Below, one piece after another: positions 13,766 through 17,000 of a stretch of DNA of 64,000 nt; the stretch's first letter is position 1, and the number at the start of each line of letters is the position of its first letter. Under the pieces are notes generated by a model. It was not told the DNA's origin and made no database searches. It saw only the letters and a list, made by a program, of their open reading frames with translations. The position numbers were made by a program, and so were the translations under genes. The stretch comes from Bacillales bacterium UBA4691. Lineage in GTDB: Bacteria > Bacillota_I > Bacilli_A > RFN20 > CAG-826. The stretch lies in contig DHKP01000028.1 in NCBI GenBank assembly GCA_002404865.1, positions 34,809-98,808 on the forward strand, written 5' to 3'.

Positions 13766-13969
13766 TGTGGTTTCTCCTTATGAATGTAAAAAGTTAAAAT
13801 AAATTATAAAGGAATTTTGTGTTTTAGGAAGATAGAATTAAGACACCATCGAATGATTTTGGCTAGAGAGCCACGTAAATAATGACCTTTTTCTTTCGTT
13901 TTGAAAGATTTTTTTATTCGTTATTTCGGTATTTGATTCCTGATTTTATTAGTTACAATCGAATGTTTT

Positions 13970-13983
13970 TGTAAGCGATTACA
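13970..13983 (+). promoter_or_regulatory. cre / LacI-family operator (TGTAAGCGATTACA)
   Basis: Perfect match to the CcpA cre consensus TGWNANCGNTNWCA, 9 nt upstream of the -35 of the GH3 operon promoter. Confidence 0.6.
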
Positions 13984-13992
13984 CGAAAGTGC

Positions 13993-14020
13993 TTGAAAAA
14001 CGCGGGGGGGGGGTTAAAAT
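13993..14020 (+). promoter_or_regulatory. Putative SigA-type promoter of the GH3/surface-protein operon with a G10 tract in the spacer
   Basis: TTGAAA (13993-13998), 16-nt spacer aacgcGGGGGGGGGGt, TAAAAT (14015-14020). An AAAGGA RBS and the ATG at 14053 lie downstream. Confidence 0.55.
14004..14013 (+). repeat. Homopolymeric G10 tract
   Basis: Read directly from the sequence. It is the longest G/C run I noticed in the window; the next is G6 at about 9704. Confidence 0.95.
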
Positions 14021-14052
14021 TTCATAAATTTGTCACAAATAGAAAGGATTGT

Positions 14053-17000
14053 ATGGACAAGAAAAAAGAAAATTTGTTTACGCGAATTTATGGTCACGTT
14101 AGCAAAGGCTGGATCATAGGACGAGCTGTGAGCTGCGCTGCAATTGCCGCCTTAATCGTTGCGATAAGCGTTGGCACTTCGATTGCAAACTCCTATTCGT
14201 CTCAGCTCACTGCTTACCTTTGCCCCCCGTTAACGGATGATTCGCAAGTTTCGCAAGCCCAAGCCGCAGGTGCTGAGCTCGCGAAAAAAGTGGAGCTTGA
14301 AGGGGCGACACTACTAAAGAATGATAACAACACCCTTCCACTTTCAAAAACTGACGATAAAAAAGTCAATGTTTTCGGATTCGGATCTGTCGATTGGTCG
14401 TATGGCGGAATTGGAAACGGATGTTCTGGACAAGTGAGACCAGAAAACGATGACCCAAATTCCGTGACTGATTTAATGAAGGCTTTAAATCGATACGGCA
14501 TTCAAGCAAATAGCGAATTGCAAAATTTTTATCGTGAATGGTGTGAGCCGGTTAACCTCATTAAGGATCCAAATAACACCGATAGAAATTTTGCTGCGAC
14601 TCTTCGAGAACCTCCAATGAGCCAATACTCTAGTGAGCTATTAGAAAGAGCGAAAGAATATTCTAATGTGGCGATTGCCGTTATTTCTCGCACTTGTTTT
14701 GAAAATACCGACCTTCCTAACACTCAAAGAAAAGCTGGTCCTGGAATGAACGAGGACAATACTCGCCATTATCTAGAAATCTCAACGGAAGAAGAGGAAA
14801 TGCTTAGATATTTGGGTTCTAACTACGAGAAGGTCGTTGTTCTAATCAATGCTGGTAACATGATGGAACTTGGCTTTATGGATTCTATTCCTGGGCTTGA
14901 CGCTTGCGTTTATGTCGGCGTTACGGGAACGCAAGCCGCTGCTTCGATTCCTGCTTTACTTTGGGGTGATACTCCTTTCTCTGGGAAATTAGTGGATACC
15001 GTTCCTTATTCCTTCGACGATATGACTTCGAGCTATTCGAATTGGTTTGGCGCCGTTAGTTACGCAAACGGCGGGCAAGGTGTCGACTATGTAGAAGGAA
15101 TCTATGTAGGCTATAAATGGTTTGAAACCGCCGATAAAGAAGGTGTATGGACAAACGTTGATAATAGTGCCGCCTATGGCGAAAAGGCAAAAGGATATTA
15201 CGGGGTTGTCCAATATCCTTTCGGGTACGGCTTATCTTACACAAATTTCGATTGGAAAATCGTTAAGTCTACGCCTGAAGCTGGTGTCTCAATTGATGAA
15301 AACACAAAATTCAAGATTGATGTTGAAGTTACTAATACCGGCAATTTTGCTGGCAAAGACGTCGTAGAAGCTTACGTTACTTTGCCTTACACAAAAGGCG
15401 GGATTGAAAAATCTTATGTCTCATTAGTTGGCTATGCAAAAACCGAGCTTTTGGCGCCTGGGACCTCTCAAACGGTCACCATTGACGTCGATGCTTATGA
15501 TTTCCTCTCTTACGATTGCTATGACAAAAATAGCAATGGTTTCAAAGGTTATGAATTAGAGAGCGGCGATTATGAAATCAAACTCATGACCGATAGCCAT
15601 AACATCAAGAAAATCGGAGATGAAGATGCCGTTTTGACATTCAAAGTCGATGACACAATCAAATGCGAAACCGATAAATACACCGGTGCAACGGTGAAAA
15701 ACCTTTTCACTGGCGACGAGGCAATTGATGGATTCTCCATCGATGGGATTGAGTCCGACTACAACGCGAATATTCCGTTTATGTCAAGAAATGACTTTCA
15801 GGCTGGCTATTCTTTCCCGAAAAGGACGAATGAAGTCGCTAAAAGATCTTTATCCGATAGAGAGAATAATGCGCTTACTTATTCCGCTAATAAGGCTAAA
15901 GAATGGGATAACGCCACGACTGATGCTTTTGGAAACGAAGTGAATCAAACTAAGCCGACATGGGGCGCAAGTACTAACCTTAAGGTTGCTGAAAACGGCG
16001 TTCCTACTGAACTAGGTTTAGCATTAGGGCAAGACTATAACGACCCTAGATGGGAGGATGTGCTCAATCAAGTGAAATATAGCGAAGCCGTTTCTTTGGT
16101 TTCCAAGTCCCCATCTGGGAATAAAGCGATTGGTTCTATCGGTAAACCGAGGCTTTTAGCTTACGATTCTATGATTCAGATCAAGGGGTTTGCTGGTAAG
16201 CCAAGAGGCACTGGTAACCCATCGACAACGATTTTAGCGATGAGCTATAACAAAAACCTTGCTTATCAATATGCGACAAATTTTGCGAATGAAATGAACG
16301 CGATTGGCGTTCAAGCCGTTTTTGGCCCTGGCATCAATCTCCACCGTTCTCCCTTTGGTGGCAGAAACTTCGAATATTTCTCAGAAGACACCTATATGAC
16401 TGCCGATATGGCTCGCATCATCGTTCGCGGATTGCAGAATTATGGTTGTAGCGTAGAGATGAAGCATCTTGTTTTAAACGAACAAGAGTCTTGGCGTTAT
16501 GGGTGTGGCACTTGGCTCACGGAACAGGCGCTTAGAGAAACGTATTTGCGTCCTTTCCAAAGAGTAACCGAAGAAGAAAACCTTTCTGGGGTGATGACTG
16601 CCTTTAACCGCATTGGCTCATTGTGGGTTGGCGGAAGCACTGCTCTTATCACCGGCGTTTTAAGAAACGAATGGGGTTTTAAAGGCTATATCGATACTGA
16701 CTGGACTGAAGGTATTACTGGTACTCCTGATGAACAACTTCGCGCTGGTGGAGAAATCGGAATGGCTCAGGCTTTAGGGGAATCTATCGCTTACGATTAT
16801 GGGGAAGGGGCCGCCTCTGGTCGCTTGCAAAATCGTTTTAGAGATGCTGTCAAGCATGTTTTGTATGGCTGGCTCTCTCCAAAATATCAAGCGAGCGTTT
16901 ATAAACCGGGCGAAGGTGAGAACATCACAACGTCCTTCACCATTCAATCTTGGCAGTGGTGGCAACCATCAATCATTGCGTTAAATTGCCTTGTGTATTT

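Follow-up and report, generated by a model that had tools for sequence, protein, structure and literature searches.

Repeat-mediated phase variation has been documented almost entirely in cultured pathogens. In Mycoplasma hyorhinis the vlp genes carry a poly-A tract in the spacer between the -35 and -10 hexamers, and in Haemophilus influenzae the hifA/hifB spacer contains TA repeats; in both cases, a change in repeat length sets the transcription of surface proteins. To our knowledge, the mycoplasmas are the nearest phylogenetic neighbours of the lineage described here in which a spacer-repeat mechanism is known. A poly-G tract lies between the -35 and -10 hexamers of porA in N. meningitidis, where 11 G residues give high surface expression, 10 give an approximately 2-fold and 9 an approximately 13-fold lower level, and variants with shorter tracts escape bactericidal antibody (PMC3639595). 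The tp0126 gene of T. pallidum also has a poly-G tract between both hexamers, with an optimum spacing of 17 nt (PMC7864442). For contingency loci in general, the threshold for high-frequency reversible switching has been placed above about 1e-5 per division (PMC5953494). Whether the restriction of phase variation to pathogens is real or reflects a database bias is regarded as an open question in a 2025 review (PMC11868660).

A G10 homopolymer was found upstream of a glycoside-hydrolase operon in the window, the whole stretch of 64,000 nucleotides analysed here. We consider it probable that this tract is a simple-sequence contingency locus, situated in the spacer of a sigma-A-type promoter and exerting a graded, slipped-strand control on the transcription of the operon. 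As in porA, a G homopolymer lies between the hexamers, occurs in lengths of 9, 10 and 11 with spacers of 15, 16 and 17 nt, and precedes a gene for a surface protein (predicted as such in our case). However, the host is an uncultured single-membrane member of the Bacilli and not a proteobacterial pathogen, the genes encode a glycoside hydrolase and a propeller protein instead of a porin or antigen, the commonest lengths are G9 and G10, and the locus is known from sequence alone. The likeness to T. pallidum covers tp0126, tprE/G/J and tprL, all with poly-G tracts of 7-11 in or adjoining the promoters of surface-protein genes, and extends to the original annotations, which ran ORFs through the tract (PMC7864442). 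Furthermore, a CRP homologue also takes part in regulating the tpr promoters, a parallel to the cre-like box found here. In contrast, this spirochaete pathogen has dozens of tracts in its genome, whereas one is present in 64 kb here, and its within-isolate variability was shown by fragment-length analysis, whereas the lengths given here are assembly consensus only. Compared with vlp and hifA/hifB, the repeat unit is G rather than A or TA, and a single-copy enzyme operon takes the place of the multigene antigen families of pathogens.

Positions 13993-14020 of the window read TTGAAAAACGCGGGGGGGGGGTTAAAAT, that is, TTGAAA followed by aacgc-G10-t and then by TAAAAT (Table 1). The direct read and a consensus scan confirmed this layout, with its 16-nt spacer, as it had been given in an earlier reading made from the letters of the window (the sequence-only reading). 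In the scan, the element was the sole sigma-70-like site between 13500 and 14300, with 10 of 12 consensus matches, and its TAAAAT lies 32 nt upstream of the ATG of the GH3 gene. Against this one promoter-like match, 1.2 are expected in the same 800 nt of shuffled sequence, and the hexamers alone prove nothing, since the number of matches is at chance level.

Apart from the tract, no G or C run in the 64 kb exceeds 6. The whole-window count gave five G6 and three C6 runs and none of length 7-9, in agreement with the sequence-only reading, which had noticed 6 as the next-longest G/C run. In a window with a GC content of 41.6%, base composition leads one to expect 0.011 G runs of at least 10. Moreover, SSR contingency loci are characterized by an uninterrupted G/C mononucleotide repeat of at least about 8, which G10 exceeds. 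As a search for further G/C tracts longer than 6 across the 64-kb window returned none besides G10, a genome-wide set of phase-variable genes is not indicated by this single tract. The regions around the promoter and after gene 2 showed no intrinsic terminator. A search of the whole window for Rfam families also gave zero, and an explanation based on a riboswitch or leader RNA was consequently dropped.

Table 1. Features of the G-tract locus and its operon, with positions in the window
Feature	Position	Strand	Remarks
Second promoter-like site, TTGATT-15 nt-TACAAT	13933-13959		Immediately upstream of the cre box
cre-like palindrome, TTGTAAGCGATTACA	13969..13983	+	Matches WTGNAANCGNWNNCW in full; 9 nt lie between it and the -35 hexamer
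Predicted -35 hexamer, TTGAAA	13993..13998	+	Sequence read and consensus scan; surrounding block CTTGAAAAACGC invariant in three lineages
Promoter spacer, aacgc-G10-t	13999..14014	+	16 nt long with G10, 15 nt with G9, 17 nt with G11
G10 homopolymer, proposed slipped-strand switch	14004..14013	+	Unique in the window; G9, G10 or G11 among near-identical strains
Predicted -10 hexamer, TAAAAT	14015..14020	+	Consensus scan; TACAAT in the 81%-identity lineage
Ribosome-binding site, AAAGGA	14043..14048	+	4 nt before the ATG at 14053; invariant in all lineages
GH3 glycosidase, 1015 aa	14053..17100	+	Pfam; TM helices at residues 18-48 and 972-997 (hydropathy)
Gene 2, 1029 aa	17103..20192	+	Starts 2 nt after the GH3 stop codon; N-terminal TM anchor (hydropathy)

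The two genes downstream of the tract are delimited as an operon by their neighbours, since the upstream gene (3-hydroxyacyl-CoA dehydrogenase) is divergent and the next gene (a copper-type P-type ATPase) is convergent. The first product has both the N-terminal (catalytic barrel) and the C-terminal domains that define GH3 family membership, with Pfam scores above the cut-offs (PF00933, 95.9 bits; PF01915, 78.4 bits; PF14310, 38.3 bits) and a permuted domain order, GH3_C, Fn3-like and GH3_N. Its closest matches among PDB sequences are the beta-glucosidases 5wug and 5k6l (E about 1e-71), and none of the NCBIfam equivalog cut-offs was reached, its score being far below every one. The catalytic part is predicted to lie outside the cell, tethered at both ends, because the protein has two TM helices and both are flanked by lysine-rich termini.

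The product of gene 2 had no match in Pfam, NCBIfam or PDB sequences. Its homologues form only 53 clusters among 5.8 billion proteins, a very small, unannotated family that is always encoded directly after this GH3. The AlphaFold (AF2) model (pLDDT 84) comprises a long N-terminal helix, beta-sandwich domains and two C-terminal tandem beta-propellers, and a fold search with it returned generic WD40/DDB1-type propellers only. A beta-propeller surface protein is predicted from this model. Regarding the description of both products as membrane-anchored surface proteins in the sequence-only reading, hydropathy predicts an N-terminal anchor in each, and a C-terminal one as well in GH3, and the placement at the surface is likewise a hydropathy prediction.

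The same locus was recovered from public assemblies by exact-protein look-ups, and tract lengths were scored in 25 contigs, 19 of which belong to the window's species. Nine of these 19 have G10 (the window, L007-L012, L057 and L060), eight have G9 (L013-L018, L020 and L062) and two have G11 (L059 and L061), as read from assembly consensus sequences; contigs of one haplotype may come from the same samples, and independent samples may be fewer than contigs. The tract flanks are identical in all 19. G11, which gives the 17-nt spacer predicted as the optimum, is the rarest state (2/19), G9 and G10 being the commonest. One of the two G11 contigs, L059, is a gapped scaffold of a UBA MAG. In L059 and L060 (GCA_002438995.1 and GCA_002438825.1), N runs fall inside the GH3 gene, which is annotated there in fragments of 378 + 672 aa or of 572 aa.

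These strains are nearly clonal, with a pairwise divergence of 0-8 substitutions per 5.9 kb in the 13 contigs compared. Over approximately 6 kb in 18 contigs, the tract is the sole indel, and the compared region also holds 12 other homopolymers of 6-7 nt, all without length change. Nine SNP sites define six haplotypes, which can be placed on a tree without SNP homoplasy. Haplotype H1 includes G10 (window, L009 and L010) and G9 (L017), and so does H2 (G10 in L007 and G9 in L015); three of the remaining haplotypes are G9-only and one is G10-only. Furthermore, over 2.7 kb the only difference between the G11 contig L061 and L056 is a single base, the tract G itself. At least four independent tract-length changes are needed, because G9 and G10 share both H1 and H2 and G11 occurs on an identical background, to be set against nine substitutions in 5,900 sites. 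Repeat number varies among close strains independently of their genealogy.

The nearest genomes are uncultured Bacilli MAGs, and two sister lineages can be defined beside the window's species (lineage A). Lineage B, of the type of "Bacillales bacterium UBA6865", shows 94% GH3 identity, and lineage C shows 81%. G10 was found in three contigs of lineage B (L003, L019 and L044). In lineage C, two contigs have G9 (L021 and L069) and one has G10 (L022), and when L021 is compared with L022, which differ by 12 SNPs, the tract is again the sole internal indel. The alignment indicates that the cre-like box, CTTGAAAAACGC, the tract, TTA[A/C]AATTT, the ribosome-binding site and the ATG are all kept in the three lineages. 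The sequences in between have diverged: only 2/8 positions of the linker joining the cre box to the -35 hexamer are identical across the three lineages, and the sequence around the expected start site differs among them. The TACAAT of lineage C retains T1, A2 and T6 of the -10 hexamer. This combination of kept elements and diverged linkers is, in the alignment, the footprint expected of a real promoter; the tract sits between hexamers conserved in three lineages, in a predicted promoter whose consensus match is at chance level alone. In lineage B a different gene lies upstream of the element, indicating that the element travels with the GH3 operon. The tract lengths in related genomes, G9, G10 and G11 among near-clonal strains as the sole indel, provide the check that the candidate phase-variation switch of the sequence-only reading called for, and the idea is supported by the recurrent length change on identical SNP backgrounds and by the retention of the element in three lineages.

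More distant loci have no such tract. No G/C run of 7 or more was found in L004 and L005, paralogous GH3 loci of related MAGs, or in the more distant orthologues L001, L002 and L065-L067. Relatives with 73-74% GH3 identity, the level seen in "uncultured Mollicutes UMGS1248" and "Bacilli bacterium CM_BacUBA1308", are without the tract, which thus occurs only in the clade whose GH3 identity is 81% or more. The 62%-identity orthologues L065-L067 have CGGGGGTAAGGGG at the tract position (approximately 1430-1445), a sequence that could be an interrupted (locked) tract or a tract precursor. A metagenome scan with the pattern CTTGAAAAACGC-N5-18-TTAMAATTT gave 32 hits, of which one was real (L044, the lineage B contig with G10) and the rest were chance matches. 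A look-up of the lineage B gene-2 protein, P0128, found a contig that stops short of the promoter. Elsewhere, the window carries ordinary genes of an anaerobe's chromosome, among them NrdD and GatAB, and the host lineage is probably gut-associated. NCBI taxonomy goes no further than unclassified Caryophanales/Bacilli, and the literature, searched for the sample and MAG accessions, yielded nothing on the habitat.

The cre-like box is nearly palindromic, and the predicted start site, near 14027, is some 50 nt further downstream. Two matches to the cre consensus were counted in the window against 1.7 expected, a number that is not significant alone. The perfect consensus, conserved in all three lineages, suggests a possible CcpA-type catabolite (sugar) control of the operon. 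A cre-like sequence is also present in the 74%-identity relative L002.

In the mechanism proposed here, TTGAAA and TAAAAT would form a functional promoter, as expected from their conservation, and slipped-strand mispairing at replication would add or remove one G. The spacing between hexamers would become 15 nt (G9), 16 nt (G10) or 17 nt (G11), and each change would reset the transcription of the operon in a heritable yet reversible manner. By analogy with the systems described above, tract length would set promoter strength, with G11 (17 nt) presumably giving the highest expression, and switching would be expected at a high rate within populations. The outcome would be a graded low, intermediate or high setting, a "volume control" rather than a strict on/off switch, which we propose because the spacers of 15, 16 and 17 nt match the porA states and tp0126 behaves likewise. 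The cre-like box would probably layer ordinary catabolite control over the tract setting. The locus plausibly belongs to a known class of SSR phase variation, the promoter-spacer class, four defining features of which (tract length, tract position, genealogy-independent polymorphism among strains and conservation across related lineages) are found, or plausibly found, in it; two others, switching within a clone and an effect of repeat number on expression, are predicted.

The evidence from strains and lineages also bears on other explanations of the locus. Homopolymers of about 10 nt are prone to raised indel error and PCR slippage, and the length differences might be sequencing or assembly errors around a true tract fixed at one length. 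Such errors would be favoured by the low coverage (1.8-5x) of L062, L007, L014 and L016 and by the gapped MAG scaffold among the G11 contigs. However, this would require errors in about half of the contigs, and each of the SPAdes, MEGAHIT and Logan assemblies yields more than one length, with no other indel in approximately 6 kb of 18 contigs. Contigs that share a haplotype agree on tract length despite different assemblers (G9 in L014/L018; G10 in L009/L010 and in L008/L011/L012), and G9 and G10 are also polymorphic in a second lineage, which comes from a separate assembly set (ERZ27271xxx accessions). We find an artefact quite improbable and treat the polymorphism as biological, since an error in about half of the consensus calls is not credible given the homopolymer error of Illumina. 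A true polymorphism could still be a mutational hotspot devoid of any regulatory role, either because another promoter drives the operon or because spacer length hardly affects its output. In one variant of this explanation, TTGATT-15-TACAAT is the promoter, the cre box acts as a roadblock and the tract lies in the 5' leader. The chance frequency of matches such as TTGAAA/TAAAAT, the classic repression geometry of this alternative site just upstream of the cre box, and the predominance of 15- and 16-nt spacers over the canonical 17 nt are in its favour. Nevertheless, lineages B and C share TTGAAA, the tract and the -10 hexamer with the window's species but not the upstream site, the change from TAAAAT to TACAAT retaining the key -10 positions. 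Moreover, the G run has stayed uninterrupted, at 9-11, down to 81% protein identity, although bases of the neighbouring linker changed, and the CGGGGGTAAGGGG of the 62%-identity relatives is interrupted. We judge a hotspot without function unlikely, somewhat less so than an artefact.

A translational switch, with the tract inside the 5' end of the GH3 coding sequence and frameshifts turning the enzyme on and off from a TTG or GTG start, deserves hardly any credence. It had been raised in the sequence-only reading as an alternative start at the TTG of 13993, which would place the tract in codons. In the window's species, the G10 frame (from TTG at 13993) and the G9 frame (from GTG at 13989) are indeed both open to the ATG, and automated annotation gives G9 contigs a product of 1036 aa. 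However, whatever the tract length, lineage B has a TGA in frame between the tract and the ATG, the observation on which this explanation was rejected, and the leader of lineage C contains one additional base, which changes the frame relation. With G11, a stop lies upstream of the tract and no alternative in-frame start exists. Furthermore, the AAAGGA ribosome-binding site and the ATG are invariant, and tract-less homologues begin at the same MDKKKEN/MKNKKEN. The translational (intragenic) SSR type, in which the repeat lies inside the reading frame, was discarded as a class on the lineage B stop and the conserved ribosome-binding site and ATG. As judged from the aligned leaders, the tract is non-coding and the longer GH3 ORFs with upstream starts are gene-caller artefacts. 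When the tract is G9, callers extend GH3 from the GTG through the tract (P0001, 1036 aa), and when it is G10 they call the ATG (P0121, 1015 aa). Databases hold both "proteins" for one gene because both frames happen to be open, and clusters of database proteins are split as a result. In large collections, tract state can also be read cheaply from the length of the called ORF, used as a proxy.

The class of mechanism is already known; the novelty of the promoter-spacer contingency locus proposed here lies in its host, an uncultured Bacilli lineage of commensal type, and in its operon, which encodes a glycoside hydrolase. The literature, searched for homopolymer phase variation of glycoside hydrolases, yielded only two papers. 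It is a clean candidate in uncultured, probably gut-associated Bacilli, governing a predicted carbohydrate-active surface enzyme, and can be tested directly from existing metagenomic reads. It is conceivable, although we hold this only tentatively, that three or more lineages of species rank have kept a dedicated contingency locus on an operon for a nutrient-harvesting enzyme, and not on an antigen or adhesin, as a form of bet-hedging between producers and non-producers of a glycosidase and a propeller protein that are costly and exposed. If true, possible drivers would include producer/cheater dynamics around a public good, evasion of IgA and evasion of phage that use the propeller protein as receptor. 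The addition of a cre-type sugar control would then make a combined stochastic and deterministic switch.

Finally, two observations were made apart from the tract. In the contig L020 (ERR8981346), the equivalent of window 14096-15000 contains 87 mismatches, in about the first third of GH3, which cause 10 amino-acid changes, and the next 3.3 kb contain zero mismatches. This cluster is, from its distribution, a recombination patch adjoining the promoter. The same contig also differs at window 13909, where it has T6 in place of T7. In addition, some GH3 homologues (L001, 109-3445; P0003, P0057, P0058 and P0075) have an N-terminal XRE-type helix-turn-helix ahead of the TM helix, and by their domain order these fusions look like membrane-spanning one-component regulators with an extracellular glycosidase domain.
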